In this document: piece after piece, positions 1-22,953 of the stretch
Layout of the letters: the number at the start of each line of letters is the position of its first letter
Position numbering within the stretch: position 1 is the stretch's first letter
Source of the DNA: an uncultured Pseudomonadota bacterium
Lineage (GTDB): Bacteria > Oederibacteriota > Muellerivitia > Muellerivitales > Muellerivitaceae
DNA length: 64,000 nucleotides
Direction: 5' to 3'
Assembly (NCBI GenBank): GCA_963843375.1
Contig: CAWJKT010000004.1
Span: forward strand, 96,001-160,000
The notes under the pieces: generated by a model
Told to the model about the DNA's origin: nothing
Seen by the model: only the letters and a program-made list of their open reading frames with translations
Databases searched by the model: none
Made by a program: the position numbers and the translations under genes

Positions 1-2330
1 CGGCCAGCGTGGTCGTGGAATAGTCCGCCGGTGCCGTCGTGTGGCAGACGGTGCAGGCCTGATTGCCGGGATTGGGCATGTGCCCCGCCGGCAGGGCCGT
101 GGAATTCCAGTTGGCGGTCGTATGGCAGATGCTGCAGTCATTCGGTGCCACCATCTGGCCCGCGTTGTGGTCGGCGGGTCGGCCCTGCAGTGCAGGACTC
201 GCTGCGCCCAGGTAGAAGCTCAGCCCGGCTTCATGGCAGGTATCGCAGGTGGTGGCCACGAAGGCATGCGTGGCTTGGGTCATGTTCATGGGCCCGAAAC
301 TGCCCACCGCATAACTCGTGGTGGTATGGCAGGAGCCACAGCTGGTGCCGCCCAGATACGGGATGTGCGCAGGCGTCAGTACCGCATCCTTGGGGGTGAA
401 GTTGTTGTACCAGGTCAGCGCCGTGGTGCCCCCGTGGCACTGCGCACACTCACTGCTGGTGATGCCGGTGTGCAGCACCGAGTTCGCGGCCAGCGTCGCC
501 GTCGAATAATCCGCCGGAGCCGTGGTGTGGCAGAGGGTGCAGGCTTGATTGGCCGGATTGGGCATGTGGCCGGCCGGCAATGCGGTGCTGTTCCAGTTGG
601 CGGTGGTGTGGCACAGGCTACAGTCGTTGGGCGCCACCATCTGCCCGGTGGTGTGATCGGCCGGCCGTCCCTGCAGGCCCGGGCTCGCCGCGCCCATGTA
701 GAAAGTCAGACCCGCTTCGTGACAGCCATTGCAGGTGCTGCCAAGTCCCGCATGCGTCGCCTGCGTCATGTTCATCGGGTCCGAAGGTGCCGGCCGCAAA
801 GGTGCTGGTCACATGGCAGTTGCTGCAGTCCGTGCCGGTGAATGCCGGAATGTGCGCCGGGGATCAGCACGGCCGATTTCGGATTGTCGTTGTTGTTGTA
901 GAAGGTCAACGCGGTGGACCCGCCGTGACATTGCGCGCAACCGGTGCTGATACCGGTGTGCAGCACGGCATTGCTGGCCAAGGTGGCGTAGCTGGCGGTC
1001 GTACCGTTGATGGCGATATGGCACACCGCGCAGGCCTGGTTGCCGGGGTTGGGCATGTGGCCGGCCGGCAGCGCCGTGGTGTTCCAGTCCGTGGTCTCAT
1101 GGCACCCGGAGCAGTCGCCGGTGGCCTGCTGCGGCGTACCGCCCGAGAGGTGATCGGCCGGGCGACCCTGCAAGGCCGGGGTCGAGGCGCCCAGGTAGAA
1201 GCTCAGGCCCGCCTCATGGCAGGTGTCGCAGGTGGTGGCAACGAAGGCATGCTTGGCCGCACTCATGCCGGTCGGACCGAAGCCGCCGACGAGATAGTTG
1301 GCCGCATGGCAGGCACTGCAGTCCGTCCCGGACAGGAACGGGATGTGTGAGGGTGTGAGGACGTCCGATAAGGGGTTGTCGTTGTTGTTGTAGAAGGTCA
1401 GTGGCGCGCCGGCGCCGTGGCACTGGGCACACCCGGCGCTGATCCCGGTGTGCAGCACCGCGACGCTGGCCAGCGTGGCGTAGCTGGCCGCGGTGCTGCC
1501 GATGGCAATGTGGCAGACGGCGCAGGACTGATTGCCAGGATTGGGCATGTGTCCGGCCGGCAGCAGGTTGGTATTCCAGTCGGTGGTCTCATGGCACAGC
1601 GAGCAGTCGCCGGTCGCCTGCTGCGGCGTACCGCCCGAGAGGTGATCGGCCGGCCGGCCCTGCAAGGCCGGGGTCGAGGCGCCCATATAGAAGCTCAGGC
1701 CCGCCTCGTGACAGGTATCGCAGGTGCCGGACACGAAAACGTGCTTGGCCGCACTCATGGCGGTGGGACCGAAGCCCCCGGTGGTGTAATTGGCGCTATG
1801 ACAGGCGGCGCAGTCGGTGCCGGACAGATACGGAATGTGCGACGGCGTGAGCACGCCATCGACGGGCGTGTAATTGTTGAACCAGGTGAGTGGCGTGGTG
1901 CTGCCATGGCACAGGCCGCAGTTGCTGCTGATGCCGGTGTGCAGCGTGGCAATGGCCGCCAGCGTCGCCGGCGTGTAGTCGCTGGGCGCCGAGGCGTGGC
2001 ATTGTGCGCAACTGAGATTGCTCGGATTGGGCATGTGACCGAGCGGCAACGCGGTGCTGGTCCAGTCCGTGGTCTCGTGGCACACCGAACAGTCACTGCT
2101 GGCCATGCGCGTATCGGTACTGGCCAGGTGGTCCGCGGGCCGCAGCTGCAGCGGCGTGCCACTGCCCACGTAGAAGCTCTTCCCGGTGTCATGGCAGGTG
2201 TCACAGGTGCCGGAGACAAAGGCGTGCTTCGCGGCACTCATGGCGGTTGACGGGCCGAAGCCCCCGGCTTGATAGGCAGCGCCATGACAGGCACTGCAGT
2301 CCGTGCCGGCCAGCACCGGAATGTGCGGCG
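1..2330 (-). repeat. Intragenic tandem repeat, ~480-495 bp unit, at least 4.7 copies
   Basis: Unit HIP..GT(D/S)CxxCH..GP..M...H...CxxCH..RPADH..DCSxCH..W...LP.GHMPNP.N..CxxCH..LHTGI..CxxCH recurs. 1111-1190 and 1603-1682 are nearly identical, 492 bp apart. Confidence 0.92.
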
Positions 2331-3443
2331 GCGCCAGCGGTGTGGCATGCGTCGGCGACACGCCCGAAACGGACATGGGGATATACGGGGCCGGTACCCC
2401 GGCGAAGGTCTGGCCGGCATGGCACATGAGGCAGTTGCTCACGGACAGGCCTGCATGCAGGGTCGGAATGCTGGCCACGAGCATCGTCCAGGTCTCAGCA
2501 CTGGGCACATTGCCGTGGCAGATGCCGCAGTCCACCAGCGAGGGAATCGGCGGCACGTGGTTGGTGGGCTGCCCCGACACAAAACCGCTGGAGATCTTCA
2601 CCGTGCCGCTGTGACAGGTCTGGCAGGTCTGCACCGTCATCTGGGTGTGATCGAAAGCCGAGGGCACCCAGCTGGGGGTCGCGGTGCCGATACCGGTCGT
2701 GTGGCAGTTCTCGCACAAGTTGCTGGTCGGCATGTGCGTACCCTGTTTGCCCACCGCCTTGGTGCCGTTGTGGCAGCTGTAGCAGCCGCTGGTAATGCCC
2801 GTATGGTCGAAGGTCGCGTTTGCCCAGGTGCTGGTCAGGTGGCAGTCGCCGCACTCCAGGCTGGTGGCGATGTGATTGGCGGGCTTGCCCGAAGCCTGCA
2901 CGCCGTTGTGGCAGATGATGCAGAACCCGGCCGCCGCCAGCGGAATCTGGCTGTGATCAACGATGGTGGGCGGATTCCAGCTGACGACACTGTGGCAGCT
3001 CGCACAGTTCTGGGTGGTGGCAGGATGGGTCGGGCCTTCGCCCTGGGCGGTGGTGCCGTTGTGGCAGCTGACGCAGCTGCCCAGCACCTCGACATGATCG
3101 AAGTGCACCTGCGGACGAAAGGAATTGGTGTCATGGCAGGCGACGCAGTTGTTGGAACTGGCGATGTGACTGCGGCTCTTCGGTGTGGCGTTGAACTGCG
3201 AGCCGCTCGTGTGGCAGGTGAGCGCAGTCCCGTGGCGTGCCCTTGAAAATGGCATTGAGGTGGCAGGATTCGCACGGCAGGTCGCGATGCACACCGTCGA
3301 GTTCGAAACCGGTCGTCAGATGATCGAAGGGCACCGTGATGGGTGGCGCGCCGCCCGCCGCCCGCAGCGGCGGTGCCGCCAGCAGCGCCACCACCAGCAG
3401 CACCGTCGCGATCCATCCGCTCCTGATGGTGCGATGTCATCAT
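1..3443 (-). CDS. Giant secreted multiheme cytochrome c (>=36 CxxCH) built from ~160-aa five-heme tandem repeats; 3' end outside window; split by indels
   Basis: ORF 772..3294 has 25 CxxCH. The frame-shifted N-terminus (3131..3403: signal-peptide-like LLVVALLAAPPLRA, then FDHLTTGFELDGVHRDLPCESCH and a second motif across the shift) adds 2. Manual translation of 1-850 on the minus strand adds 9 (CSNCH, CNGCH, CSLCH, CTLCH, CAQCH, CGSCH, CDTCH, CSICH, CTVCH) with no stop before position 1. Confidence 0.93.
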
Positions 3444-3449
3444 CTGGGC

Positions 3450-5030
3450 CTACTGGATCCGCGCGCCCTTCCAGGAATCGCGTCGAATGGCAGCGCTCGC
3501 AGTGCACACCGTACTGTCCGAGATGCCGGTCATCCTTCTGATGGCAGGCGTCGCACTGCTGCGACATCTTGACCGTGCCCGGCGGGTCGCGGTGGCAGTC
3601 CGCGCATTGCAGCTTGGCGTGCGCTCCGAGCAGCGGGAAATGTGCCTCCCTGGCGTGATCGAAGCTCCACAGCGCCCAGCCGTTCGCCGAATGGCAGCCT
3701 TCGCACTTGTTGCCCAGGCCGCCCTTGTGCACGTCATCGTGTGCGTGGCAGGCGACGCAGGCGGAGGCCGCGGCGCTGAAGGCCAGCGTGGCATGGCACT
3801 GCGCACAGCTGACGATGCGGTGCAGACCCAGCAACGGGAAGCTGGTCACATCGTGATCGAATACCACATCGGCTCGCCAGCCGTTCTGCCCGTGACAGTC
3901 ACCGCAGCCGCCCTTGAGCTTGGCGCCGTGCGGATCCTCGCTGCGATGGCAGTCGGCGCAGTCCTGGCCGAGCTTCTGGGTCGCGACGGCCGCGGTATGG
4001 CAGGCTGTCGCAGGCGAGGTGCGCGTGCGCGCCCAGCAACGCAAATTGGTGCCGCCCGGTGTGATCGTAGTTGTCCACCTGCCAGTGACTGTTGTCGTGG
4101 CAGGTCCTCGCACTGGCTGCCGAAGCGCAGCGCATGCGCATCGTCGGCGCGATGGCAGCCCGCGCAGTCCTTCGGGATCTTGTCCTTGTAGTTGCCGCTG
4201 CGGTGACAGGCCAGGCAGTCGATCTGCGCAGTGCGCACCCAGCAGCGCATAGCCGGTCTCCTTCAGGTGATCGAACTTCGCCGCTCTTCCACTGCTTGGT
4301 CACATGACAGCGTCCGCAATCCGAGCCGCGGCTGCCACGATGCACATCATCGGTGGCGTGGCAGCCGACGCAGCTCGCTCGGTGTCGGCTTGTAGCGTCC
4401 GCCGATATGGCAGGCATCGCACGTCAGGGCCGTGTGGGCGCCGGTCAGTGCGAAGCGGGTCTTGCCGTGATCAAATGTGCCGCCGCTCCAGTCATTGCTC
4501 GAATGGCACTCGCTGCAGGACTGGGTGAACTGTCCACGATGCGACATCGTCCGCCTTGTGGCAGCCGGCGCAGGTGTCGGCCACGGCGCGCCAGGCCGCC
4601 TGCGGCTTGTGGCAGCTCTCGCAGGGCAGCGCGGCATGCGCACCTTGCAGGCGAAAAGTCAGTCAGCTGGTGATCGAAGTGCGCACGATCCAGCTGCACG
4701 ATGTCGGCGGTGCGCCCCTTGTGCTCGGTGTGGCAGGCGCGGCATTCGCCGGCGCCGGCATTCGCCATGCGGCCATGGTAGCCGCGGTGCGTACGCAACA
4801 TCGGCGGCAATCTGCTTGTGGCAGTCCAGGCACAGGGAGGTCTGAGTGCGCGCGTTGGTGCGGTCATGGCAAGCTGGCGCAGGTGGTCTCCAGCTTTGCG
4901 TGAGCGCTTGCGCACCTTCCCCGGCATCAGCAAGGTCTCCACCGATGCCGCACCCGCAGCGCCCGCACCCAGGCACAACAGCAGTAATCCACCCGGCTCC
5001 CAGCATCTTGAGAATCGAGCCGCGCCGCAT
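3450..5030 (-). CDS. Periplasmic multiheme cytochrome c, 21 CxxCH (3 N-terminal + 6 triheme repeats); split by several indels
   Basis: Stitching ORFs 4659..5030, 4445..5653, 4347..4643, 3899..4417, 3846..4250, 3316..4113 and 3450..3806 gives a signal peptide then repeats of (F/Y)DHxxxxFxLxGxHxxxxCxxCH..CxxCHxxxDxH....CxxCH, ending KGARIQ*. Confidence 0.88.
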
Positions 5031-5039
5031 GTTTGGCCG

Positions 5040-5923
5040 TCAGTAGATGTTGACCGCGACCACATGCACGATTCCTGCAACCAGGAGCATGAAGAACAGC
5101 GGGATGTGAAGGACGTGCCAGAAGGAGAACAGGCGCGCATAGAGACGGTACTCGGCGGTGCGGCGCCCCGCCTCCAGGCGCCGGTCGGCATAGCGGCGCG
5201 CCAGGGCCGCCAGGCGGTCCGCATGGCGCACGACGATGCGCCCCTCCTGGGCTTTGCGCCACCCGCAACGCCCGGGCGATCTCCCGGTACACCAGCCAGC
5301 GGGCAATGAGGATCCGCAAGGCGCCGGTGAACAGGTGCGGCACGCGCGCCAGCGGCGCCCGCGGTGGCTCGATGTACCGCTTGCTCGACGCGCGCGATGA
5401 CATCCAGCACCCCGGGCAGGAAGGCGATGGAGGTGCTTTGCGCGCGCAGCCGTTCGCCCACCGATCTGAGCTGCTCCAGGGTGCTCTCATGGCCGTCCAT
5501 GTGGGCGTGCAGGCGGGTATAGATGTAGCGGCCCACCACGCCGCTGCCGGCGACCAGTAACATGCAAATCAGGGCGACATTGCTGTTGGTGGCGCCGAAA
5601 CTGAAGTTGGCGTGAAACAGCACCAGCAGCGGACCGGTCACGCCGAGCACCATGTGGATCTGGAACCAGCGCCGGAATGGTTCCGATCCAGCGCAGCCAG
5701 GCAGCCCGCTTGCGGGCCGAATAGATCAGCAGCGCCAGCATCATGCAGCCACCGGCGATGCCAAGCGCATAGCCCACACCGTGCTGCGGGGAGATGTAGC
5801 GCTCCAGGTGGGCATGCCACCCCAAGTAGACCAGCCCGGCGACCACCGCACACCAGATCAACGGCCAGTGCAGCCGCAGGCGCGACGGCTGAGGCCCGCC
5901 AGGCTGGCGGCTTCGACGCTCAC
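5040..5923 (-). CDS. Inner-membrane protein with His-bearing TM helices (putative heme-b/quinol-linked partner of the multiheme cytochromes); frameshifted
   Basis: Pieces 5487..5861, 4445..5653 (N part), 4927..5490 and 5040..5306 join into GYALGIAGGCMMLALLIYSARKR..WFQIHMVLGVTGPLLVLFHANF..GVVGRYIY..WHVLHIPLFFMLLVAGIVHVVAVNIY. GTG start overlaps the upstream stop. Confidence 0.75.
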
Positions 5924-6780
5924 GGGATCACCTTGTCGATCACGATCTTCACACGGCGGCGATCGTGCGGATTGATGACGGCACTCGTGCCCTGCAGGTC
6001 CCCTGCGGTGGCCAGCGGCTGGCCGCTCGGCGAGATGCGCGCCTCGATCGTGACCCGTCCGGCGTTCGAGAGCGTGCGTCCCGGCAGCATCGACTCGCTG
6101 TCGTCCAGAGCAAAGCTCAAAGGCCAGGTGCCGACACTGCCGCGGTACACGGCGACCGGTGCCCCCGGGCTGTCCACTGACTTCGCCACGATGAATATCG
6201 TCGTGCCGGCGGGGGCACGCGACGCCAGGGCCGGAGCCAGCGCCACCTCGCCCGTGACACCGGTTGCCGCAGGCGCACTCGAGTCACCCGGCGCGCCGGC
6301 CGGCGGCGCCTTCAGCGCGGGCAGCTGATGCGCCCGCGCCTGCGCGGCCTGCTGCGGCCGGCCCAGAAAATCATAGGACTTGGCGAGCAGCTCCCAGTCA
6401 TCGTCGCTGCCGCCGCTTTTGGCCAGCCGGGCTTGCAGCGCCGCAATCGCCGCGTCCATGGAACCAGCACGCCCCGCATCCTTGGCGCTGCCCGCGGCGG
6501 CAGGCGCCGCAACACCGCGGCCCATGGCATCAGCCAAGTCGGCCCAGGAGTCACCCGTCGCTGCGCTGCTGACCGCGGCCGCAGCGGACGGCGGCGGCGC
6601 GGGTGTGCCGCCGTAGTTGAGACCCAAGTCTATGGCCATGACGATGAGCGCCGCCGCCCCGGCGGGCCACGGCAGCGCCGGAAGGGTCGCCAGTCGCGGA
6701 ATCGTCCGTAGCCAGGGCAGCAGCAAAATGACGGCCGCCAGCGTGAATACCCCGCCGGATATGAAGGACAGTACCGACAC
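5920..6780 (-). CDS. ccmI: Cytochrome c biogenesis factor CcmI/CycH-like (TM, TPR, C-terminal Ig-like domain)
   Basis: N-terminal TM with LLLPW, TPR-like DWELLAKSYDFLGR, and C-terminal TIFIVAK..GAPVAV..WPLSFALDDSESMLPGRTLS..VTIEARISPSG..GDLQG typical of the CycH Ig domain. Confidence 0.8.
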   Translation of the reverse strand: MSVLSFISGGVFTLAAVILLLPWLRTIPRLATLPALPWPAGAAALIVMAIDLGLNYGGTPAPPPSAAAAVSSAATGDSWADLADAMGRGVAAPAAAGSAKDAGRAGSMDAAIAALQARLAKSGGSDDDWELLAKSYDFLGRPQQAAQARAHQLPALKAPPAGAPGDSSAPAATGVTGEVALAPALASRAPAGTTIFIVAKSVDSPGAPVAVYRGSVGTWPLSFALDDSESMLPGRTLSNAGRVTIEARISPSGQPLATAGDLQGTSAVINPHDRRRVKIVIDKVIP

Positions 6781-6948
6781 TCGATGCGCTCCTCAGCAGA
6801 CCGTGCGCCACGGTCCCGATTCCAGGATCCGGATGCAAACAACGCGCTCGTGCGCTTTGCTAAGTAAAGTTGATTCTAATGATCGCCCAACAATTTGACA
6901 CATGTATGTGAATCACGACACTGATCCTGGATGCAGCGGCCGGCGGTA

Positions 6949-6964
6949 TGTGATTTGATTCGCA
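6949..6964. promoter_or_regulatory. CRP/FNR-family-like operator in the divergent promoter region
   Basis: TGTGA-tttgat-TCGCA matches the CRP consensus TGTGA-N6-TCACA at 9/10. A TTGACA hexamer lies at 6895-6900 in the same AT-richer spacer. Confidence 0.45.
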
Positions 6965-7015
6965 GTATCCTGGCGACCCGGTTTTTACTCTAATAGGCCC
7001 GCCCTCACGGTCCGA

Positions 7016-8335
7016 ATGAGCCCGCACATGGACTTCTGGTCATTGGTCCTTTACGGACTACCCCTGGCGGCCATCCTGGCTGTCTACATTTGGCGACAGC
7101 AGCGCACGCATCACCAGAATCGGCGTGTGCACGAAGAAACGGTAGCGGCCGGCTTGACCGAGCCTGCCTCCTTGCATCCAAGCATTGATCCGAGCAAATG
7201 TCTGGGCTGCGGCGCCTGCGTGAAGGCGTGCCCCGAGCAGCCGCATCACACGGTGCTCGGGCTGATCGATGGCAAGGCGGTGTTGGTAGGCCCGACCGAT
7301 TGCATCGGTCACGGCGCCTGCAAGACCGTGTGCCCCTTCGATGCCATCACCCTGGTGCTGGGCACCGAGCGGCGCGGCGTGGATATTCCCGTTCTCAAGC
7401 CCAACTTTGAATCCAATGTGCCGGGGATTTATGTCGCCGGTGAACTCGGCGGCATGGGTCTGATCAAGAACGCGCTGACGCAGGGCCGTCAGGCGCTGGA
7501 GTCGATCGCCAAGGAGCTGAAGCCCCAGCCCGGGGTGCTGGACGTACTCATCGTGGGCGCCGGCCCCGCGGGCCTGGCTGCGTCCCTGGCTGCCAAGCAA
7601 CTGGGACTGAATTATCGGACCGTTGAGCAGGAAGCCCTGGGCGGCGCGGTCTTCCAGTATCCGCGCGGCAAGCTGGTGATGACCGCGCCGGTGGAGCTGC
7701 CGATCATCGGCAAGATTCAGTTCCGCAATACGACCAAGGAGGAACTGCTGAAGTTCTGGACCCAGGCCTGCCAGGGCAATGGCCTGAACATCCGCTACAA
7801 GGAGCGCGTGGAGACCGTCCAGCAGCGCGATGGGTGTTCCAGGTGAAGACCACGCGGCGAGCGTACCAGGCTTCACGCGTCCTGCTGGCCATCGGCCGGC
7901 GCGGCACACCGCGCAAGCTGGGCGTACCCGGCGAGGAGCTGCCCAAAGTGGTGTACCGGCTTGATTGACCCGGAGCAGTACCAGGGACGACGTGTCGTGG
8001 TGGTCGGTGGCGGTGACAGTGCGCTGGAGGCCGCGGCCAGCATCGCCGAGCTGGGCACCTGTGCGGTGATCCTGTCGTATCGTGGCGAAGCCTTCCAGCG
8101 CGCCAAGCAGCGCAATCGCCAGCGCGTGCAGGAGGCCAGCGCCCTGGGCCGACCTCAAGGTACTGATGGGTTCGGCCATCCAGGAGATCCAGCCGCAGGC
8201 CGTGGTACTCAAACAGGCCGAAAAGTCATGGCCGTCGCCAACGATGCCGTGATCGTGAGCGCCGGGGGAGTATTGCCGAACGACTTCCTGCGCGCCATCG
8301 GCATCGAAGTGGAAACCAAGTACGGCACGGCATGA
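7016..8335 (+). CDS. Membrane-anchored 2x[4Fe-4S] ferredoxin fused to a thioredoxin-reductase-like FAD/NAD(P)H oxidoreductase; frameshifts near 7835 and 8150
   Basis: N-terminal TM, CLGCGACVKACP, CIGHGACKTVCP, VPGIYVAGELGG, IVGAGPAG, then in the shifted frame LAIGRRGTPRKLGVPGE and VVGGGDSALEAA. Confidence 0.85.
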
Positions 8336-10331
8336 TGAACCCGCGCCTGCACCGGACCGTCCGTGATGCCCGCCTCGGCCTGCTGCTGGGCCTCATCATG
8401 GGGCTGGGAAACCCGGGCGCCCGCGCAGCGACACCGCGCGCGCGTGGATCCGCTGGAGCCGGCGCGCAGCGCCCTGCGCACCCTGCAGTTCAGCCGCGCC
8501 ATGCAGCTGCTGAGGCCGCCGGCACGGCGGGCAATCCCGAGGCGCAATACCTGCTCGGTCTCATGTATCTGAATGGCGTGGGCATCGCGGCCGATCCCGC
8601 GCGATCACGCGCGCTGCTGCAGTCCGCCGCCGAACACGGTCAGGGCGCGGCCGCCTACGTGCTGGCCAGTGAACTGGCGCGCGATCCCGCGCGCACCGCC
8701 CGAGGCGGCGCGGCGCTGGCTGGAACACTCGGCGCAGCTGGGCTACGGGCGTGCCGTAGAGGTGTTGAAGGCAGGCGGCGTACTGCTCGCCCGTGAAGAC
8801 CTGGGTGTCTCGGATCCGGCGCTGCGCCCGGCGTGGGTGATCGCCTGCATCCGCCGCAATGACACGGCGGAGCTCAAGCGCCTGGGCACCGACAGCCTCT
8901 CGGCGCGGGATGCGTTCGGACGCGGATCGCTCGATTACGCCGTCCAAGCCGACGCAGTGGCCGCGGCGACCATGCTGCTGCAGCTGGGTGCGGACGTTCA
9001 CGCAGCGGACAGCTTCGGCACGACGGCGCTGATGCTCGCCGCCGAACGCTCCGACACGCCCTGCTGGACCTGCTGCTGCAGCATGGTGCGGACCTGCAGG
9101 CCGTGGATGCCGAACATCGCACCGCGCTGTTCTATGCCGCGCGCGCCAATCAGCCCCAGGCGATCACGGCGCTGCATGCGGCCGGCGCGGCGCTGGACGC
9201 CCGCGACGAACGTGGCTACAACGCACTGGATGCCGCACTGGCGGTCGGGCGCCACGGGCGCCGCCCAGGCCCTGCGCGATGACGGCCTGCAGGCGCATGT
9301 GGCCGCGACGGCGCCCGCGCGCAGCGGCAAATTTGATCCTACCCGTCCGGGTGACATCTATCCGAATTGGCCCGTGCTGGCCCTCGCCGTTGCCCGCAAC
9401 GACACCAGCGCCATCCGGCAGCTGCTGGATACCGGCGCCCTGCCAACCTGCGACTGCCGGCAGGGCGAGTCGCTGCTGCAGATCGCCGTGGATGCACGCG
9501 CCTTGAACGCCCTGCCGTTGCTGGGCACACGGGGCTCCATCACGGCTACCGATCACGCCGGGCACACCGCGCTGTGGCTGGCGGCCGCCCGTGGCGATCT
9601 CGCCGTGATTCGGGCCCTGCTCGCCTCAGGCGTGGCCGCCGACACGCACGGTGCCGAGGAAACCACCCCGTTGCTCGCGGCGTTGCACAGCTCCCACGCC
9701 GAGGCGGCGCAGGCCTTGCTGGAGGCCGGTGCCAATCAGGAGGCCATCGATTCGCAAGGCCGCCGGCCGCTGATGATCGCCTGCGCAACCCGGCAGCTGG
9801 CGCTGGTGCAGTGGCTGCTGGCCCATCACGTCCAGGTGGATGCGCAGGATGCCCAGCGTCGCACCGCGCTGTGGCATTCCGTCATCTTCGGCTCCGCGGC
9901 CGAGGTGAATGCACTGCTGACGGCCGGTGCGCGGGAGGACGTCGGCGGACGCACAGGGCCTGACGGTGCTGCACGCTGCCGCCGCTCAAAGTGACGCCGC
10001 GGTCGTACAAGCGCTGCTGGCCCCCAACACCAGCCTGAATCAGCGCAGCGTCAGCGGCGATACGCCGCTGCTGATCGCCGCGGCCAGGGGCCACGCCGAA
10101 CTGGTGCAAGAACTGCTGAAAATGCGTCCGGACCTGGATGTCCAGAACCGCGCCGGTGATACCGCGCTGATCGCCGCTGCGCGCGGGGGCTATGCAGCCG
10201 TGTGCCAGCTGTTGCTCGCGGCGGGAACCAATACTGCCCTGCGAAACGCTGCTGGCGTCACCGCCGCCGAGGTGGCTCAGGGCCGAGGCTTCACGTCGCT
10301 GGCCCGCGATCTCACCAGCAAGACTCTCTAA
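8332..10331 (+). CDS. Exported Sel1-repeat + ankyrin-repeat protein; frameshifted
   Basis: Signal-peptide-like start, GNPEAQYLLGLMYLNGVG (Sel1), many ankyrin motifs (GTTALMLAA, GHTALWLAA, GDTPLLIAAARGH, GDTALIAAARGG). ATGA overlap with the upstream gene. Confidence 0.82.
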
Positions 10332-10346
10332 CGCTGCGCCCGCGAC

Positions 10347-11579
10347 TCAATAGGCCAAGAACGGTCCGGTATAAAGGCCGGCCGTGCGCTGTTCGAAGCC
10401 AACGTAGACAGGCCGGCCGTAGAAGAAGGGCATGCCCCAGGTGAAGTTGGTCGAACCACCTCCGCCGGCGAGGTCGATGAAGGCGGCGGCACCGGCGACA
10501 AAGGTATTCGGGTCGGCGATGGCAAAGTTCACGGTGCTGGAGGCATTGTTGACGCCAACTCCGGTGTTCACGGCAAAGACGCTCTGCGGCGCCACGGCCG
10601 GACAGTAGTAGCCCACGAACGGGCCAGTGCCGCACACGCCCAGCGTGGGATCATCAAACAGATAGGAGTCGGCCCCGGAATCAATCAGTGACGGAAGGGC
10701 CGTCGCGCCGCCATTATAGGTGGCGGTGAAGTCGCCATTGGCATTGGTGCCCAACACGGCCAGCCCGGTGGCGGGCAGCGCATTGTCGCTCTGGGTTCCC
10801 AGGCCGAAGATCACCTCGCCCGCCACGCTGGCATCGCCGTTGGCATTCTGCAGATTGGGCAGGTTCACGATCAACCCATTGTTATCCGCCGCGAACAGCG
10901 TCGCCGGATTGGTCACCTGGGTGCCAAGCGCAGCATTTTCTGCCGTGCAGACGCCGGCGGCGCTGCAGCCGTAGTAGACCGGAAGCGGTGACGCAGCGCC
11001 CGCACAGGCATTGCCGCAATCCTGTGCAAAGACACCGATGCCCAGTACACCGTTGGCACCGAAGCCGGAAATGCCATTGATCAGCGTCCCGTTGGCGCCG
11101 CACGTTGCTGGCGGCGGTGCGCTGCTGCCCGTATCATCCATGATCTGGATGGGAACCTTCGATGCGGCCTCCCCGGCCAAGGTGACGTCAGTGAGGGCCA
11201 CGGGCCCCCACGTCTGTCCGCCACCGAACGTGACGCACTCCTCCAGCGTCTGCCCCTGGGCATCGGTTTCGGGGCTGAGTTTGACACTCGCCGAGAGCAC
11301 CGAACCGACCAGTCGCAGGCCGGACGATCCGGTATCCAGCAGCACATGGTCGATATTCAGGCACTGAGTCTGGCTGCCCGGTACGCACACCGTCACAGTC
11401 ACGTAGGCATGGTTGATTTGACCGCTGGCGCCCGCTGGCCCGGAATCCACGATGACCGTCAGGCGGTTTTGCACCGGCGGCGGCGATTTCGCGCCGGCGC
11501 CCGTGCTGCTGTTGCCCACACAGGCGCCCAGCAATGTCGGAAGCATGACGCTTGCAATGAAGGCTACAGCACATCGCAT
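10347..11579 (-). CDS. DUF3443 family lipoprotein
   Basis: Lipobox LLGAC, then YVTVTVCVPGSQTQCLNIDHVLLDTGSSGLR and C-terminal WGMPFFYGRPVYVGFE. RBS GGAGG upstream of the ATG at 11579. Confidence 0.85.
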   Translation of the reverse strand: MRCAVAFIASVMLPTLLGACVGNSSTGAGAKSPPPVQNRLTVIVDSGPAGASGQINHAYVTVTVCVPGSQTQCLNIDHVLLDTGSSGLRLVGSVLSASVKLSPETDAQGQTLEECVTFGGGQTWGPVALTDVTLAGEAASKVPIQIMDDTGSSAPPPATCGANGTLINGISGFGANGVLGIGVFAQDCGNACAGAASPLPVYYGCSAAGVCTAENAALGTQVTNPATLFAADNNGLIVNLPNLQNANGDASVAGEVIFGLGTQSDNALPATGLAVLGTNANGDFTATYNGGATALPSLIDSGADSYLFDDPTLGVCGTGPFVGYYCPAVAPQSVFAVNTGVGVNNASSTVNFAIADPNTFVAGAAAFIDLAGGGGSTNFTWGMPFFYGRPVYVGFEQRTAGLYTGPFLAY

Positions 11580-11602
11580 GCGTTCCTCCTGCCTCCGCGC
11601 CG

Positions 11603-12073
11603 TCAGCGCAGGGTATCCAGTGCTACGCCGGCCGGGACGGCCGCGGGCAGATACGCCCGCCCAGAGTAGGCGCGCAGGTGCCCACCGGTATCCACCACCA
11701 GGTCTGCCGTCACAACATGAATGGCGCGCTGACGGCCCGCATTCTGCAGTAACCAAAGGGCACTGGCGTACTGCCCGAAGTACGCACCCAGCACGGCCGC
11801 CAGATCCGGTACTGCAGGTCCACTCCAGCTCACCGCAAACACGGTGCCGCCAGAATCCAGGAACTCGCGCACGGTCATGCCGTTGTCAGTCCGGATGCTC
11901 ACCGTATCGCCCGGCGCTGGCTGCACCGGTTGCACCTGGCCGTGCAGTTGCGTTGCATCCGCGAGAATACTGGCCGAATCCCCACCCAAGGTAGCCTGCG
12001 CACTGATCGACCAGGCGCACAGCGCGCTCGATATGACAATCCGCGGGACAACGCGAGCAACTGAACGATGCAT
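11603..12073 (-). CDS. DUF2844 family secreted protein
   Basis: AQATLGG..TVREFLDSGGTVFAVSWSGPAVPDLAAVLGAYF..GGHLRAYSGRAYLP. Sits in the usual position before DUF3443. Confidence 0.85.
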   Translation of the reverse strand: MHRSVARVVPRIVISSALCAWSISAQATLGGDSASILADATQLHGQVQPVQPAPGDTVSIRTDNGMTVREFLDSGGTVFAVSWSGPAVPDLAAVLGAYFGQYASALWLLQNAGRQRAIHVVTADLVVDTGGHLRAYSGRAYLPAAVPAGVALDTLR

Positions 12074-12225
12074 TCGAGTATTGTGCAGCATCAGCAGCGG
12101 CGCTGGCACCGTCTCAGAATGCCGACAGGTCCACGCGTCCGACCGCGCTGCGGCTGAACTGTGGCGAGACAAAAATCCCTTTGACAGTGAAGTGCGCCGA
12201 TTCGCAAATCGTATTGTCTCAAAAA

Positions 12226-12560
12226 TCATAGCGCAGCTGCCGGGTGGCGCCTCCGGGCACAGGAACGACAACAATGGAAGCCCGAGTCCACGCGCGCCCA
12301 GGTCGATGCCTTGCGGTCCCAGCCATCAATCTGGAAGATGGCCGCGGCCGCAGGCGGCCCCCAGAAACGCGGACTTTGCACCGCCTTGAGCGCTGAGGCA
12401 CCCACTCGCGACCAGCCCGGCGCAACTGTCACATCCTCGCCCCAAGGGCGGCCCTCCTGAACGGTCGCGCAGTCGCTTAACGCCAGGCCAAGCAACCCCA
12501 ACCACACCCTTCCAGGCACTGCCCGAAAGGCCAAAGTCCGCCGTCGTCTCGCTGCGTGCA
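12226..12560 (-). pseudogene. Truncated N-terminal remnant of a lipoprotein-like (possibly PAP2) gene
   Basis: LGLLGLALSDCAT..GRPWGEDVTVAPGWSRV..FWGP.AAAAIFQIDGWDRKASTWAR, after which the sequence loses protein-like character. Confidence 0.4.
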
Positions 12561-13613: not shown

Positions 13614-14198
13614 ATGACCATCGATGCAGCAGACGCGGCGCTTGCGCAGAATCCCCCCGGGCGCTATGGACCGGGCGCGATCGGGTTTCACTGGGCCACG
13701 GTGCTGCTCGTGGTGTGGGTGGGGGTACTGGGCCTGCTGCATGATTCCTGGCCTCGAGCAACGCAAGCGTTCTGGATAAACGTTCACGCGCTTTGCGGAC
13801 TTTTCCTTTGGGCGGTGGTCATTGCGCGGTTGTGGTGGCGGACGCGCCATCCACCGCCGGGCTTGCCTGCCGGCGTCAGCGAACTTTCGCGTCGACTCTC
13901 CGGGCCTGTCCACCTGTTGCTTTATGCATTACTGCTGATCATTCCCATTATTGGCATAGTGACATTCATCTGGCACGGCCGCGTCTTCGACTTCGGCCTA
14001 TTCCGGATCAATCCGGGCGTTCGGTCGAACCGCGCAATATTTCATCCCACCGAAAATATTCATGGCTATCTGGCCTACGCCCTGTTCGCGCTCGCCGGCC
14101 TTCATGCCGCTGCGGCGCTCTACCACCATCTGATCAGAGGTGACGACATCTTGAGACGCATGTGGCCGCGCTCTGGCAGTAACCACTCAACTCGCTGA
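13614..14198 (+). CDS. Cytochrome b561 (YceJ-like di-heme b)
   Basis: Four TM helices with FHW, NVHALCG, VHLLLY, IHGYLAY and LHAAAALYHH..RDD-like C-terminus. Confidence 0.88.
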   Translation: MTIDAADAALAQNPPGRYGPGAIGFHWATVLLVVWVGVLGLLHDSWPRATQAFWINVHALCGLFLWAVVIARLWWRTRHPPPGLPAGVSELSRRLSGPVHLLLYALLLIIPIIGIVTFIWHGRVFDFGLFRINPGVRSNRAIFHPTENIHGYLAYALFALAGLHAAAALYHHLIRGDDILRRMWPRSGSNHSTR

Positions 14199-14311
14199 TC
14201 CTTAGTGCCAGACAGCGACCCTCGCAACGCGCAATATTGCCATGAGAACGATTAGCGGCGATGCGGCCCCGAGATCATGGAGCCGCGCGCGCCCGCCGCC
14301 TGGCACCAAGC

Positions 14312-15187
14312 TCATCGGACACACCAGGCCCGTACCTTCTCCTGGCGCAGGAAGTCTTCCGCGTCGGCGCCGCGCAGGAGCGCTAGCTTCGCCAGCAATC
14401 CCGCCTCGGTGCATGTGGGAGCGTGAACTGTCACGGACCGTGGTGCGTCGGGTATTGGCCAGCCGGTTCGAGGATCCAGAACATGACCATATCGCGTACC
14501 TCGGTCATTCACATAGCGGTACGTATCGCCGCTGGTGGCGAGGGCGCCGTGGGTGAGGTCCAGCAGGCCCGAAGTAACGCCCGCCTGATCCACGTCCTCT
14601 ATTGCCACATGCCAGTGGCCACCGTCCCGCCTTGGCCCAGAGACCCTAAGATCTCCTCCAAAATTGACCAGCACGGGCGCATCAGTGGCGTCTTGGGCCA
14701 GGAGCAGTGCCCGATCGACGGCATACTCCTTACCGATGCCACCTAAATCGATCTCCATTCCCGCAGGCAGCTGCAGCACCGGGCGACGCCAGGAGACGCG
14801 GTGCCAGCCTACAAAGGGGAGGATCTGCAACACTGCTGAGGCGTCCGGAACCGTGCCCGTACCATCAAAGCGCCATACCCGCCGCAACACCCCGGAAGTG
14901 ATGTCGAAGCGACCTTCACTCAATTGATAGCACGTTTCCGCATAGTCAATGAGATCGGCGGATTCGGCGTCCAATAAGACTTCATGGCCGGCGCTCTGAT
15001 TGATCGTTGTGACCACACTGGGACGGTAGCGCGAAAACTTCGCCTCGACGCGCAGCGCTTCCTGTTTGACTGCCTCTCCCACTCCAGCCCCGATCTCAGC
15101 GTCGGCGGTGTCAACCAGGACAATGCAGGGGCTGCCCATGGCCAGGAACTGAGTGACGTGGTGCTGATTTTGTGTGCCCTGCGCCAT
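14312..15187 (-). CDS. apbE: FAD:protein FMN transferase ApbE
   Basis: AMGS, EAKFSRYR, FDITSG, IDLGGIGKEYAVD, VNFGGD, ATSGD, YGHVLDPRTGWP. Confidence 0.93.
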   Translation of the reverse strand: MAQGTQNQHHVTQFLAMGSPCIVLVDTADAEIGAGVGEAVKQEALRVEAKFSRYRPSVVTTINQSAGHEVLLDAESADLIDYAETCYQLSEGRFDITSGVLRRVWRFDGTGTVPDASAVLQILPFVGWHRVSWRRPVLQLPAGMEIDLGGIGKEYAVDRALLLAQDATDAPVLVNFGGDLRVSGPRRDGGHWHVAIEDVDQAGVTSGLLDLTHGALATSGDTYRYVNDRGTRYGHVLDPRTGWPIPDAPRSVTVHAPTCTEAGLLAKLALLRGADAEDFLRQEKVRAWCVR

Positions 15188-15190
15188 GAC

Positions 15191-16568
15191 TTAGAAAGCA
15201 TAGCTGTATCCGAGGAGGACTGTTACGGCGGTGAGGGCCGGAAACAGATTCTGTTGTCGCAATTGACCGATGGCGAAGCCCGGGGAGCCGTCACCGCGCT
15301 GATCATAGTATTCGATCCGGACGCTGAACTCGGAACCTTCATCCACGGGCAAGCCGAATTTCAAGCCGTAAGTCGCAGCGTGGAACTTGGCCAAACGAGT
15401 GTCCGCCGAGGCGAATTCCGGCAATGGCTGGCCGCCCACCAGGTAGTAGTCGAAGAAATTGGCTGCACCTTGCTGGTAGTAGCGTGCATGCGGTTCAAGA
15501 TACGCGCTGCCGGGGAGCATGTATCGATAGCGCAGATCCGCAGTGACAGATTTGATACCCCAATCGTCCTTGTAGCCGCGCACGTCAAATTCGACGATAT
15601 CTTGGGATAAGTGGACCTTGTTTTCCAGGAACAGACTCTGCTTGTGCCGCGAATCCGGACGGCTCTCATACAGCTGCGAAACGGGCTGCCCACTCACAGG
15701 GTCGACCACTGAGATGATCTTGTAGGGATCGTTTTGGTAACCGTGGCTCGTTGAGTAGGAGTAGCTCAGGGATGAGAGCCACCGCCGGGTCATGACCTGA
15801 GTCAGTCCGAGGACGGCATCGACCTCACTGCGGCGGGCATCCGGACCCTTCCAGTCCCCACTCATGACACTCAGGGGCGTCGGGGTGCCTCCGATCGGAA
15901 ACGAGAGATCCGACTCGTAGTTCACCCCGGCGTTGAGCGTGGTGTTGTGCTGGTTGAGATCCTTGGAGACGCCGAAATTGACGCTCTCTGCACGATAGTC
16001 GTGTTCCTTCGAATAGGCCAGACCGCCATTGACAGTCACCCCCGCACCCAGGATCTGCTGCCAACCCGCGTTCGCAGCGTAGCGCAGATCCTTGAAGCTG
16101 GTGTCCAGAGGATAGGTATCCGCCGGTACAGTTCGGGTCGCCGAGAGCGTCTGTGTTGTCGCCCCGGTTGCCGGAGGCACCAGGGTCACGACGGAGCCAC
16201 CCGATGCCGTTGTGACCGTCACGGGCGTCCCAAGCGGAATGATCTTGTAGGGGCGCACATAGTTCTGGGGCAGCGTCGATGGCACCGCGCCAAGTGGCGT
16301 CGGCCCCGTCACCGAGTCCACGGTGAAGCCGAGCGTCAGTATGCTGTTTTCATCGATCTGTTGCGTCAGATTCAGGTCCGGCTCAATCGCGTGCACCCGA
16401 CCATTCTCATGGTAATAGAGAAGCCCGGTGTCAATCGTGGTTGTCGGCACGATCGGCCGGCGCTTCCTGCGCATTCGCATGAACTCCCGCAAGCAGGCCT
16501 GTTGCGGCCGTTGCGAGCATGCGCCGCAATGCGGACCTGGTCGGCGACACCTTCGGCTTCAATTGCAT
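15191..16568 (-). CDS. DUF3570 family outer-membrane beta-barrel protein (indel near 16445)
   Basis: Start MQLKPK..LATAATGLLAGVHANA overlaps the DUF4266 stop. Motifs DSVTGPTP, YSKEHDY, GYQNDPYK, RPDSR, DDWGI, ADTRLAKF, and C-terminal YSYAF. Confidence 0.85.
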
Positions 16569-17770: not shown

Positions 17771-20098
17771 TTATTGACTGCTCTGTAGCCGCCAGGAGAA
17801 TCCAAGGGTGACGCTGCGTCTGGGCCAGGAATCTGTTGACCAGGAAGGCGTTGCGCCAACAATGGGGGAAAGCTCCGCGCAACAATTGTTACTGCGATTG
17901 GCAGCATTCGTGATCTCCAGCCACACTGAGACCTCTCCAAGGCGAGTGAAGAGGCTGCGCGAGAGATGCGCGTCGAGGCTGAGATATCCTCCCCAGCGCA
18001 AACTGTTCTCTGGGCCCAGCAGTAAATAGGGGGCACTGCCAGGTGTTGCGGCGACAAGGTCGATCGGCGTGCCTGGCCAGCCACTGTGCCAGCCGACCAG
18101 GAGCGATGCCATCGTACGCGGGGTCTTCCAGGCTACGCCTAGATTGAGCGCGTGGCGCTGATCCCAACTGCGCGGCACATCGCCACCCGGCAGTTCATCC
18201 AAGGCCTGCGACAGGGTATACGTGCCCCATAAGGTCAGGTGAGAGCCGATGGACTGCCTCGCGCTCAGCTCAATTCCGTCGCTTTCGGCGCCCAGTGGTG
18301 CGATCAGCATCCGATCAGGTTGCAACTCAGGCAGCAGCGTCACAACCCCGAGCGCGTTGTCATAGTAGGGACTGATACTCGACCAATGATCGCGGTAGAT
18401 CTCGACCCGCCATCGCAAGGCGTCGTCCGGTTCGTGCGCGAGCCCGACTACTGAGTGGACGGCCCGGTTGGCGGAATCCGGAGTGGACTGATTTTCTGCT
18501 GCGCGATATTCATCAACGCGCTGAGCTTGGCTGAACTCGCCCCAGGAACCATACACATGCCAATCCGGTGCCGGGTCATAGCGCACATTCAGCCGCGGCG
18601 TGAGCTGCGTGCGCTCACCGAAACCCCGGTAGTCCTGGCTGTCCACGCGAGCACCGATCTCCGCCTCGAAGTCTCGCCACTGTCGGCGCGCCGAGGCGAA
18701 CAGGCCGAAGCTCGATGCGTGCGGGGACTGGTCCGAGTTGACACTGACGAGCGGCTGCAGGCTAAAACCGGGCCCCAGCACGCTCGTGAAGGTTTCATTT
18801 TGGCGGTAGTGCGATGTGGCGCCCTCCGTCGCGAACTCCGCGCCCGCATTCCAGAGCAGCCCGGAGTTCGAAAGGTATGTCCATTCACTCTGGCCGGCAT
18901 AGGTGGCGAAGTCGTGCTGCTCATCGAGTGCTCCGTCCACGACACCGGTCAGATCGAGATTGCCAGAATGCCTGCTCTGGGACTGTGTATAGGAGAATGA
19001 TGTATGGGATTGCAACGCGGAGGTCGGTGCCCAGTCCCAGGCGAGCCAGACGTACTCGTCACGCGAATGTGCGTTCGCCAACTCATCGCGTGATCCTTCG
19101 CTCGCGCTCGCCTGGTCATCGAGCAGGAGCCATCCCACCGTAGCGCTCGAGCCCGGGCTGATGATCCAGCGGGCTCGTGTGAGCGCATCGAAGAACACAG
19201 GATTGATAGGGTTGGCGTCGATAGGTTGCAACGCGTTGGTTTCATCGGGACTGCGTCGGACCGAGGCCAGCCACTCAATGGGCCATCGATCCAGGCGTCC
19301 CGCGCCGGAAAAGTCGACACCCAGGCGGCTCGCATCGGCCTGCAAGTCGTAGCCCGAGGGAACGGTTTTGGGTGCGACATCGATCACGCCGGCTGTGCTG
19401 CCTCCAAATCGCACAGGGAAGCCGCCAGAATATATGTCGATACGCTCCACGTCGGCAGGGAGGAATGGGCTCAGCAAACTTTCAAATGCACGGAAATGAT
19501 ACGGATTGGTCAACGTCACATCATCGAAGCGAAACAACACTTCGTCTGCCTTGCCACCGCGGATGTACGGGCGGGTGGAATAGGTGCTCGCCACGCCTGG
19601 TGCCGCGCGCGCCGCGCGCAAGGCGTCATTCTGCGTGCCCGGCACCTGCTCAATAGCGCGCTGGTCCAGGGCATTTGGTTCGCCATCGCCGGCACTTTCA
19701 AAGGCGTAGTGGCTGGCGAATACGACTACCTCTTCGGTTGCGGATGGCCCAGCGGCCGTTGACGCAACACCGCTATTTGTGGTCGCTACCGGATTGTGAA
19801 CAGGCGCTGCGCGAGTTACCACAAAATGGTGATCGTCGGTCTTCTTCAGCTGCAAGTCATTGGCAGCAAGTGCCGCTTCAACCTGGGTAATCAGGGGCTC
19901 AGCTTGGGTTGCTGCCGGCGCGATCAATGTGGGTGGCACCAGGTCCGAGCTGAAGAGCACGCTCACACCGGTGGCACTCAGGGCGCGAAGCAATTCGGCG
20001 ACGGCGACGTGCGGCGTTGGCGCACCGGCCGCCACCGCCGCATAGGCGGCCAGCACGAGTACGAGCGGCCTAAGGCGCCGACCCGTCAGCGGCGGCAC
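17771..20098 (-). CDS. TonB-dependent receptor with N-terminal signalling-like extension
   Basis: 775 aa, signal peptide, EEVVVFAS TonB-box-like segment, plug motifs PGV..YIRGG..IDIYSGGFPVRFG..GVID, barrel-type C-terminus. Confidence 0.88.
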   Translation of the reverse strand: MPPLTGRRLRPLVLVLAAYAAVAAGAPTPHVAVAELLRALSATGVSVLFSSDLVPPTLIAPAATQAEPLITQVEAALAANDLQLKKTDDHHFVVTRAAPVHNPVATTNSGVASTAAGPSATEEVVVFASHYAFESAGDGEPNALDQRAIEQVPGTQNDALRAARAAPGVASTYSTRPYIRGGKADEVLFRFDDVTLTNPYHFRAFESLLSPFLPADVERIDIYSGGFPVRFGGSTAGVIDVAPKTVPSGYDLQADASRLGVDFSGAGRLDRWPIEWLASVRRSPDETNALQPIDANPINPVFFDALTRARWIISPGSSATVGWLLLDDQASASEGSRDELANAHSRDEYVWLAWDWAPTSALQSHTSFSYTQSQSRHSGNLDLTGVVDGALDEQHDFATYAGQSEWTYLSNSGLLWNAGAEFATEGATSHYRQNETFTSVLGPGFSLQPLVSVNSDQSPHASSFGLFASARRQWRDFEAEIGARVDSQDYRGFGERTQLTPRLNVRYDPAPDWHVYGSWGEFSQAQRVDEYRAAENQSTPDSANRAVHSVVGLAHEPDDALRWRVEIYRDHWSSISPYYDNALGVVTLLPELQPDRMLIAPLGAESDGIELSARQSIGSHLTLWGTYTLSQALDELPGGDVPRSWDQRHALNLGVAWKTPRTMASLLVGWHSGWPGTPIDLVAATPGSAPYLLLGPENSLRWGGYLSLDAHLSRSLFTRLGEVSVWLEITNAANRSNNCCAELSPIVGATPSWSTDSWPRRSVTLGFSWRLQSSQ

Positions 20099-20131
20099 TG
20101 CTCAGGTGCGCACTCGGAAAACCCCTCCGAT

Positions 20132-21154: not shown

Positions 21155-21756
21155 AGCGGTATGACTCCGCTTGAGGCACCGACGTTGGCGGTTTCCTCGG
21201 TCCATCGCTCACGAAAGGCCTTGCGCGCGCGCGCCAACAATGACTGCGTAGCTATGATCGAAAGCCCGAGCAGGCGCGCAATCTCCTCAACCGAGAGACC
21301 GTCGGCGTACTTGGCTTCCAGTGCCTGTGCATAACTCTTTGGCAAGGCGTCCAGCAATCGGATTACCTCGGCACGGCGCTGCGTAGACTCCAGTTGCGCC
21401 AACGGTTCCAAGTGTCCGGGCGCGGGCAACTCCGCCACCGCCGCCCGCGCGCCGGCTTCGAACAGACTCACATGTGCCGGTCGGCGCGTCGACTTGCGAC
21501 TGACGTCGGCCAGCTCATGGCGGCAGATCTCGCATAGCCAGGTGAATAGGGCTGATTCGCCGCGGTAGCTGGCCAAATGGCGAACCGCTTTAATCAAGGA
21601 GTTCTGCACAACATCTTCCAGGCTTGCCCCGTCGAGTCCAGAGCGGCGCGAAGCGAACGCCGCCAGACGCTGCGCGCAAGCGTCAAAAAAGGCGTCGAAG
21701 GCACGCTGATCTCCGGCAAGCATACGAGATACCAAATCTAGATCCGCCTCGTACAC
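21151..21756 (-). CDS. ECF (sigma-70 family) sigma factor
   Basis: GDQRAF, EDVVQ, YRGESALFTWL, LDALP..GLSVEEIARLLG..SLLARAR. Confidence 0.92.
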   Translation of the reverse strand: MYEADLDLVSRMLAGDQRAFDAFFDACAQRLAAFASRRSGLDGASLEDVVQNSLIKAVRHLASYRGESALFTWLCEICRHELADVSRKSTRRPAHVSLFEAGARAAVAELPAPGHLEPLAQLESTQRRAEVIRLLDALPKSYAQALEAKYADGLSVEEIARLLGLSIIATQSLLARARKAFRERWTEETANVGASSGVIPL

Positions 21757-22900: not shown

Positions 22901-22953
22901 AGTATGAGTCACGAGGGTTAGATAAAAATGCTTGAAAGGGTTATATTTCTTCC

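Follow-up and report, generated by a model that had tools for sequence, protein, structure and literature searches.

A PCC3-type multihaem cytochrome cluster with a linked Fe-S flavoprotein and Sel1/ankyrin protein: a candidate route for NAD(P)H-driven electron export

PCC3 systems are among the largest predicted bacterial haem wires and are common in iron-cycling and soil proteobacteria. In the sections of He, Barco, Emerson and Roden (2017, Front Microbiol 8:1584; PMC5566968) that define them, a PCC3 gene set encodes a porin, an extracellular cytochrome (median 34 haems) with a repetitive sequence full of small residues, a periplasmic cytochrome (median 21 haems) and an inner-membrane protein (IMP) of about 300 amino acids (aa) with five helices, of which the fourth has SGXXG and the third and fifth each have WX3HX13H; the likeness of these motifs to those of NOX enzymes and ferric reductases is pointed out in the same sections. 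The system is treated as four genes in the relevant parts of PMC5566968, PMC9900912, PMC13386937, PMC8788666 and 10.1101/2025.02.27.639646, and two such clusters, Slit_0867-0870 and Slit_1446-1449, are listed for S. lithotrophicus ES-1 in the portion of PMC8788666 that concerns them. Here, we describe a cluster of this type at the start of a 64,000-nucleotide stretch of DNA from an uncultured bacterium (assembly GCA_963843375.1, contig CAWJKT010000004.1, positions 96,001 to 160,000; “the window” denotes this whole stretch). It is accompanied by genes for two further proteins, an Fe-S flavoprotein anchored in the membrane and a Sel1/ankyrin protein that is exported; neither gene is a chance neighbour of PCC3. 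We propose, with moderate confidence, that the flavoprotein passes electrons from NAD(P)H to an IMP that likely holds two b haems and from there outward.

Layout and identity of the cluster

The window corresponds to G000:C4:96001-160000 (genome, contig, positions); a second stretch, L001 (C4:78001-97000), was used for the DNA before its start. Genes were placed with six-frame open reading frames (ORFs) in combination with Pfam and NCBIfam, which gave the following features (window coordinates, unless marked G000:C4):

1..3440 and on past the window start to G000:C4:95018, minus strand: giant multihaem cytochrome, predicted to be of the extracellular type; about 1145 N-terminal codons lie in the window
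~3466..5030, minus strand: periplasmic-type 21-haem cytochrome with signal peptide, from the CXXCH count and tblastn to the L010 orthologue; several frame breaks
~5043..5890, minus strand: PCC3 IMP with five helices, from two WX3HX13H motifs and SGXXG in the three-frame translation; frame-broken
5920..6780, minus strand: CcmI/CycH-like protein, Ig_CycH (PF23892, E 4.7e-29), two N-terminal helices
6781..7015, no strand: divergent intergenic spacer of 235 bp, from the ORF ends
7016..8335, plus strand: membrane-anchored Fe-S flavoprotein with one helix at the N terminus, two [4Fe-4S] motifs and an FAD/NAD(P)H module of TrxR-type, pyridine-nucleotide-disulfide-oxidoreductase fold (TrxR, thioredoxin reductase), from Pfam and NCBIfam
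8332..10331, plus strand: exported Sel1 and ankyrin protein of ~666 aa, from Pfam Sel1 and Ank and a signal-peptide-like N terminus; frame-broken
G000:C4:92556-~95000, minus strand: SPOR-TPR beta-barrel (predicted porin), 781 aa, directly downstream of the giant cytochrome and before the window start
after the SPOR-TPR barrel gene and before the window start, minus strand: lipoprotein, 192 aa

All genes named in the preliminary description of this DNA (CcmI-like, His-rich membrane protein, two cytochromes, flavoprotein, Sel1/ankyrin) lie where it had placed them, and the divergent spacer, estimated there at about 235 bp, measures 235 bp. A single sigma-70-like site, matched by consensus only, lies in the spacer (minus strand, 6901-6873). 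On the plus strand, the ATG of the ankyrin gene overlaps the flavoprotein stop codon by 4 nt, an overlap that is identical in L010, and the two genes are translationally coupled.

The giant cytochrome contains 45 in-frame CXXCH motifs, counted in a three-frame scan, and one further motif broken by an indel, which a DNA-level scan allowing one extra base recovered, i.e., 46 over the whole gene. The 35 intact motifs and the broken one that fall inside the window agree with the earlier count of at least 36 haems. Its orthologues in L010 and L047 have 46 CXXCH motifs in one frame. The motifs sit in repeated units visible in the translation, and Pfam recognizes Cytochrome_C7 (1.1e-38) and the MtrC/MtrF domain (6.5e-18). 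For the smaller cytochrome, 18 intact motifs and three broken by a 1-nt insertion (DNA-level scan) add up to 21, and its intact orthologues have 21, sometimes 24. Together, the two cytochromes would provide a predicted path of 67 haems (21 + 46).

Downstream of the giant cytochrome, where the preliminary description had suggested looking for a large porin, lies the gene of a predicted outer-membrane barrel. The 781-aa protein combines SPOR and TPR domains with a C-terminal Phe. Its AlphaFold2 model, built with 16 orthologues (mean pLDDT 78.8, ~90 over residues 342-780), has a C-terminal barrel of ~22-23 long strands, for which Foldseek returned outer-membrane barrels only (MOMP, Omp38, AlgE, FimD usher; E 3.9e-11 to 1e-7).

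The IMP motifs in the window read W-FQI-H-x13-H, SGVVG and W-HVL-H-x13-H, and the W/H and SGXXG residues do not vary in two alignments, one of 38 and one of 30 homologues. An exhaustive search places 990 cluster representatives in this family at E<=0.001. In the AlphaFold2 model of the L010 orthologue, five long membrane helices are accompanied by a helical hairpin. Judging from its motifs, the IMP likely binds two b haems; the model, together with positive-inside reasoning, would place a His pair close to either face of the membrane and the long hairpin in the cytoplasm, where it is a possible docking site. Two lone IMP homologues were also met (L021 and L059, 56-58% identical to P0129), whose 10-kb flanks on each side contain no cytochrome, porin or flavoprotein match.

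Each PCC3 sequence feature examined is thus present: porin, many-haem cytochrome, ~21-haem cytochrome and IMP motifs. The assignment of the operon to PCC3, already made in the preliminary description, is upheld by gene content, motifs, haem counts and the downstream barrel gene; by these sequence features, the cluster is of the PCC3 type and otherwise ordinary in kind.

The flavoprotein and its linkage with the inner-membrane protein

The flavoprotein has two Fe-S motifs, the canonical CxxCxxCxxxCP and a CxxHxxCxxxCP (Pfam Fer4_10, 6e-12). In the second (window ~7301-7336), a His (H101) replaces the second Cys, and this residue is invariant in 22/22 aligned sequences. His-ligated Fe-S clusters act as electron exit points in some hydrogenases. 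The dinucleotide-fold motifs GxGxxG and GGGDSA are kept in the alignment. The only cysteines invariant across the 22 sequences are those of the Fe-S motifs, and the CxxC of thioredoxin reductase (TrxR) is not conserved among them; since CxxC is missing outside the Fe-S motifs, an identity as disulfide reductase was considered and is ruled out. The NCBIfam models for TrxR, YpdA and related proteins score far below cut-off; among solved structures, YpdA/Bdr (7a7b, E 4.3e-40) and ferredoxin-NADP reductases of the TrxR type come closest. Thousands of metagenomic relatives of ~435 aa are intact and 79-94% identical to the flavoprotein. From its sequence, the protein resembles a membrane-tethered ferredoxin that has been fused to its own NAD(P)H reductase. 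Its cofactor domains are probably cytoplasmic, because positive charges follow the single helix and a twin-arginine signal is missing.

The flavoprotein gene accompanies the IMP gene far beyond this locus. One genome per species was scanned with a 12-sequence IMP alignment, giving at least 568 loci, the best 80 of which, almost all from Steroidobacteraceae or unclassified gammaproteobacterial metagenome-assembled genomes, were analysed. By tblastn, the flavoprotein is present in 69 of these 80 loci, in 66 together with the ankyrin gene, and it stands divergently upstream in 67 of the 69 (the other placements being L080 and L085). Among the 11 loci that lack it, eight have less than 1.3 kb of upstream DNA, L021 and L059 are the lone IMP paralogues, and L056 has a full PCC3 cluster.

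The same pairing is seen in 400 evenly drawn gammaproteobacterial genomes (G283 was left unscored; the unpublished genome G074 was used in the tally only). The IMP occurs in 48 (47 at E<=1e-40 and one truncated hit at a contig end) and the flavoprotein orthologue in 47 (51-64% identity): 44 genomes have both, four the IMP only, three the flavoprotein only and 349 neither (Fisher p 3e-50, which is overstated since the genomes are related to each other). Three of the IMP-only genomes (G134, G273, G301) have the IMP less than 5 kb from a contig end, the fourth being G373. Two of the flavoprotein-only genomes (G216, G239) have theirs at contig ends, and in the third, G286 (locus L102), flavoprotein, ankyrin, porin and cytochrome genes follow one another into the contig end. 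Same-contig pairs number 43 in 40 genomes, with gaps of at most 2.5 kb in 38 of the 43 and a largest gap of 17.5 kb. The remaining four genomes with both genes have them on different contigs, which in G155 end inside the repetitive cytochrome (L103, L104). Where two IMPs occur (G078, G287, G342), there are two flavoproteins, and every pair is adjacent.

Gene order varies: the flavoprotein gene can be divergent, downstream of the porin (L080, L089, L090, L102, L104) or co-directional (L085, L100, L110, G433). In 20 distant loci, hand-picked from gammaproteobacterial genomes with hits (GC 37-69%), the flavoprotein is found in 18, with the ankyrin gene beside it in 17, in divergent, convergent-downstream and co-directional orders. 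The combination of Sel1 and ankyrin repeats with a signal peptide is kept in the distant orthologues L099 and L100. Among 301 sampled alphaproteobacterial genomes, three have the IMP, and all three have the flavoprotein within ~2 kb. The preliminary description had named conserved linkage in other genomes as one test of its proposal, and homologues of both genes are indeed linked to the IMP and cytochrome genes, in more than one gene order and in two classes of proteobacteria.

A distant paralogous trio, recognized by sequence similarity, repeats the pairing of flavoprotein and IMP in L106 (G211:C4:134000-147999) and L107 (G373:C16:16000-25999). It consists of a TrxR-like flavoprotein of ~811 aa (34% identical over the FAD/NAD part; the G211 copy is frame-split), an IMP-like protein of 276 aa (27-28% identical) and a cytochrome with 9-10 haems.

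The six-gene core of PCC3, flavoprotein and Sel1/ankyrin protein is well supported and apparently unpublished. The main text of He et al. ties no FAD, ferredoxin or pyridine-nucleotide term to PCC3, the text of its supplement contains no FAD, ferredoxin, pyridine-nucleotide or ankyrin term, and the open full-text literature (i.e., without subscription papers and bioRxiv supplements) yielded nothing that links the flavoprotein or the ankyrin protein to PCC3.

Proposed route and competing readings

In the proposed route, cytoplasmic NAD(P)H would reduce the FAD of the flavoprotein, which would pass electrons to its two Fe-S clusters, the second of them His-ligated. From there, electrons could move to two b haems carried by helices 3 and 5 of the IMP, along the 21-haem periplasmic wire and into the barrel-embedded 46-haem cytochrome, to reach an external acceptor, e.g., Fe(III), Mn(IV), humics or O2. 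Electron flow would thus be outward, serving export and not iron oxidation. For Fe(II) to reduce NAD(P)+, electrons would have to go steeply uphill, and an inward route also runs against the membrane potential. Outward flow is therefore favoured by both redox potentials and membrane potential. The finding that PCC3 genes of strain ES-1 are down-regulated, not up-regulated, on Fe(II) (in the expression results of PMC8788666 for these clusters) fits this direction.

The exported Sel1/ankyrin protein might act as a periplasmic scaffold or assembly factor, and the CcmI-like protein as a lineage-specific helper in haem attachment. The latter has Ig_CycH and two hydrophobic N-terminal helices, Pfam detects no TPR in it, and NCBIfam gives no hit. 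Steroidobacteraceae genomes have two to three Ig_CycH genes each, one of them beside the IMP, and the CcmI-like gene is found in 66/80 of the mostly Steroidobacteraceae loci and in 1/20 of the distant gammaproteobacterial loci, which marks it as an extra copy specific to this lineage. The earlier idea that it is a dedicated maturation aid is weakened, as the system in general does without it. The lipoprotein gene is similarly distributed (45/80 related and 1/20 distant loci). Beside the cluster lies one further gene with a possible link to maturation:

G000:C4:91502-92032 (L001 13502-14032), plus strand: TlpA/DsbE/ResA-like thiol:disulfide oxidoreductase, convergent with the PCC3 lipoprotein gene

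It was considered as a conserved partner and rejected, as a match of more than 50% identity occurs in only two of the 80 loci (L017, L050). The suggestion that the locus represents a fuller system than core PCC3 is partly supported: the flavoprotein and ankyrin genes are linked to it across two classes, whereas the CcmI-like gene is lineage-restricted.

A number of observations weigh against NAD(P)H-driven export. The published model has electrons moving inward (PMC5566968, in its account of PCC3 function), and PCC3 is so far a predicted system known from sequence. The IMP has no Pfam family match, PF01794 included, and no solved relative in a profile search of PDB sequences; Foldseek of its model against the PDB gave nothing at E<=0.001, and a VIA search of the model returned generic helical-bundle matches only, with cytochrome b561 at Z 7.5. 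A fusion of IMP and flavoprotein, which the preliminary description had suggested looking for across genomes, was not found among the homologues: nine longer ones have no flavoprotein domains, and a search for longer IMP homologues with a fusion returned nothing, which is weak evidence. G032, a single chromosome of 4.4 Mb, and G373 have full PCC3 clusters and no flavoprotein orthologue genome-wide, so that the flavoprotein is not obligatory and the IMP must be able to use a different donor or acceptor, such as the quinones put forward by He et al. To these points are added the kinship of the sampled genomes and the hand-picking of the distant loci mentioned above, and, for the present locus, the broken frames and the origin of the near-identical contigs in a single study, discussed below.

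The classical model, in which PCC3 takes electrons inward from Fe(II) or another donor, the IMP reduces quinones, and the flavoprotein forms a side branch (sensing, repair or NAD(P)H formation assisted by the proton-motive force), is unlikely here. The inward, quinone-reducing scheme was proposed when PCC3 was defined (PMC5566968, in the same account), and PCC3 occurs in iron oxidisers (according to the parts of PMC5566968 and PMC9900912 that list carriers). The two genomes with PCC3 and no flavoprotein, in which the IMP has another partner, are in line with it, whereas a side role poorly explains why the flavoprotein is present in 44 of 48 IMP-positive genomes, usually adjacent. The uphill reduction of NAD(P)+ by Fe(II) and the ES-1 down-regulation also speak against it. 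It is rather improbable that the flavoprotein and the Sel1/ankyrin protein are factors for cytochrome maturation or maintenance, which would keep CXXCH or haem iron reduced via the IMP, or serve as a scaffold for folding or insertion. Proteins with Sel1 and ankyrin repeats are usually scaffolds or chaperones, the two genes are translationally coupled, the Steroidobacteraceae cluster includes a CcmI-like paralogue, and the TlpA-like gene lies beside the cluster in this genome. However, the flavoprotein is without the CxxC of a disulfide reductase, the CcmI-like gene is missing from 19 of the 20 distant loci, the TlpA-like gene is matched at more than 50% identity in just two of the 80, and the strict pairing is with the IMP, a predicted membrane electron carrier. 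That the flavoprotein/ankyrin pair stands next to the operon through inherited synteny only, without functional coupling, is hardly credible: while 67 of 69 related loci share one arrangement and most come from one family, the linkage survives at least three other arrangements and in a second class, and IMP and flavoprotein share presence and absence over the 400 genomes.

A further alternative concerns the state of the genes themselves. None of the cytochrome, IMP, flavoprotein and ankyrin genes is a single open frame in this assembly, and the frames switch at 1-nt indels. The giant cytochrome is broken near 3426, 3223, 859 and 776, and the flavoprotein has a compensated indel pair at 7833-7958. 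With at least a dozen frame changes across five genes, the array could be taken for decaying pseudogenes with real frame breaks, but this is very improbable. Contigs from four soil-metagenome runs were aligned to window 1-10400; depths of the short-read contigs are low (2.5-6.6), and the near-identical ones come from one study (P1), which may include the source sample. Those of runs X1-X3, 95-99+% identical, do not have the indels at the same places: they differ from the window by exactly 1 nt at twelve sites (776, 859, 3223, 3426, 3480, 4003, 4106, 4229, 7833, 7859, 7862, 7958), several of these differences being present in three runs. The differences coincide with frame switches and broken CXXCH motifs, and exactly those indels restore the motifs. 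A gene in the 50%-GC part of the contig is intact, and a low consensus quality of the segment fits better than decay. The frame breaks are most likely consensus errors of the assembly and not pseudogenes.

The segment itself most likely comes from another bacterium than the main organism of the assembly. The GC content of contig C4 is 61-66% up to ~118 kb, ~50% up to 460 kb and ~70% beyond; in the window, it shifts at ~22-23 kb, from ~61-65% to ~50% within 21850-23465 (G000:C4 ~117.8-119.5 kb). On the low-GC side, the intact gene 23466-24671 has a 94% identical counterpart in G001, a genome of the same genus, and lacks a close match among Steroidobacteraceae; on the high-GC side, the gene 15191-16492 is 42-47% identical in Steroidobacteraceae and has no match in G001 or G002. 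The flavoprotein orthologue is absent from 30 taxonomic relatives of G000, where the best matches are ~30% identical. The high-GC segment is therefore described as Steroidobacteraceae-like. A chimeric contig join at the GC shift is likelier than a large acquired island, because of the lineage split of the flanking genes, the lack of the flavoprotein in the relatives of G000, and the indel load.

Several further genes are found in the high-GC segment. A pair of DUF3443 and DUF2844 genes (10347-12274, minus strand) lies directly past the ankyrin gene and takes the same place in many Steroidobacteraceae loci. Genes for a cytochrome b561 (PF01292), an ApbE flavin transferase and a DUF3570 protein adjoin one another at 13614-16492, and some ten related loci likewise have an ApbE match at ~6 kb distance from the flavoprotein; this cluster could be a further extracytosolic redox module. 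At the segment edge, a TonB-dependent receptor, a FecR-like anti-sigma factor and an ECF sigma factor (17771-21849, minus strand) form a regulatory set of the iron-uptake type.

The conserved, probably cytoplasmic Fe-S flavoprotein of NAD(P)H type beside the IMP provides a concrete candidate for the electron source of the wire. If NAD(P)H-driven export is true, reducing power would be exported (e.g., to reduce metals or humics, to acquire iron or to balance the redox state) and not harvested from Fe(II), and the use of PCC3 genes as markers of iron oxidation in metagenomes would need re-reading. More tentatively, one could regard PCC3 in general as a six-part, NAD(P)H-driven electron exporter, the trans-envelope counterpart of an NADPH oxidase with the ankyrin protein as an obligatory part, which is widespread in soil and sediment proteobacteria and is not an iron-oxidising intake into the quinone pool. 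In any functional work on PCC3, the flavoprotein and Sel1/ankyrin genes belong with the rest.

Comparison with known systems

The closest described system is PCC3 itself (He et al., 2017), with which the locus shares porin, many-haem extracellular cytochrome (46 haems; published median 34), 21-haem periplasmic cytochrome and IMP of ~300 aa in the same order. It differs in its gene set: published PCC3 comprises four genes that pass electrons to the quinone pool, whereas the present locus, like almost every carrier sampled, also has the flavoprotein and the Sel1/ankyrin protein. The CcmI-like gene and the lipoprotein are additions of the Steroidobacteraceae clusters to the published model.

In MtrCAB and MtoAB, too, an outer-membrane barrel encloses a multihaem cytochrome of the periplasm, an extracellular cytochrome being present or not, and the giant cytochrome shares with MtrCAB a Pfam match to MtrC/MtrF domain II/IV. 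They are, however, built from 10-haem units and use a quinol dehydrogenase of the CymA type as membrane link; in the present locus, the NCBIfam decahaem models all stay below their cut-offs, and the barrel of the present locus carries SPOR and TPR.

The FAD/NAD(P)H module of the flavoprotein resembles YpdA/Bdr and TrxR-type ferredoxin-NADP+ reductases (7a7b, 3ab1, 3lzw; E 4e-40 to 1e-16), and the TrxR CxxC is missing from this module. In contrast to these, the flavoprotein begins with a membrane helix and has a 2x[4Fe-4S] domain, with its Cys-to-His change, fused to the module. The segment behind that domain matches the C terminus of 7a7b, which suggests that the order of modules may be permuted relative to that structure.

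In its proposed logic, the system is reminiscent of NOX/FRE proteins and of the MsrQ-Fre pair, in which a cytoplasmic NAD(P)H flavoprotein feeds two b haems and, through them, an acceptor across the membrane; in NOX/FRE, as may be the case for the IMP, the ligands of the b haems are His pairs with a spacing of 13 residues, located on two helices. MsrQ has been described as a haem-containing membrane protein from which electrons pass to periplasmic MsrP (PMC12525009, in the part dealing with this pair). Unlike NOX/FRE, the IMP gives no PF01794 hit, and the dehydrogenase would be a separate Fe-S flavoprotein of TrxR fold instead of an FNR-type domain. The acceptor would be neither O2, as for NOX, nor MsrP, as for MsrQ, but a chain of cytochromes.

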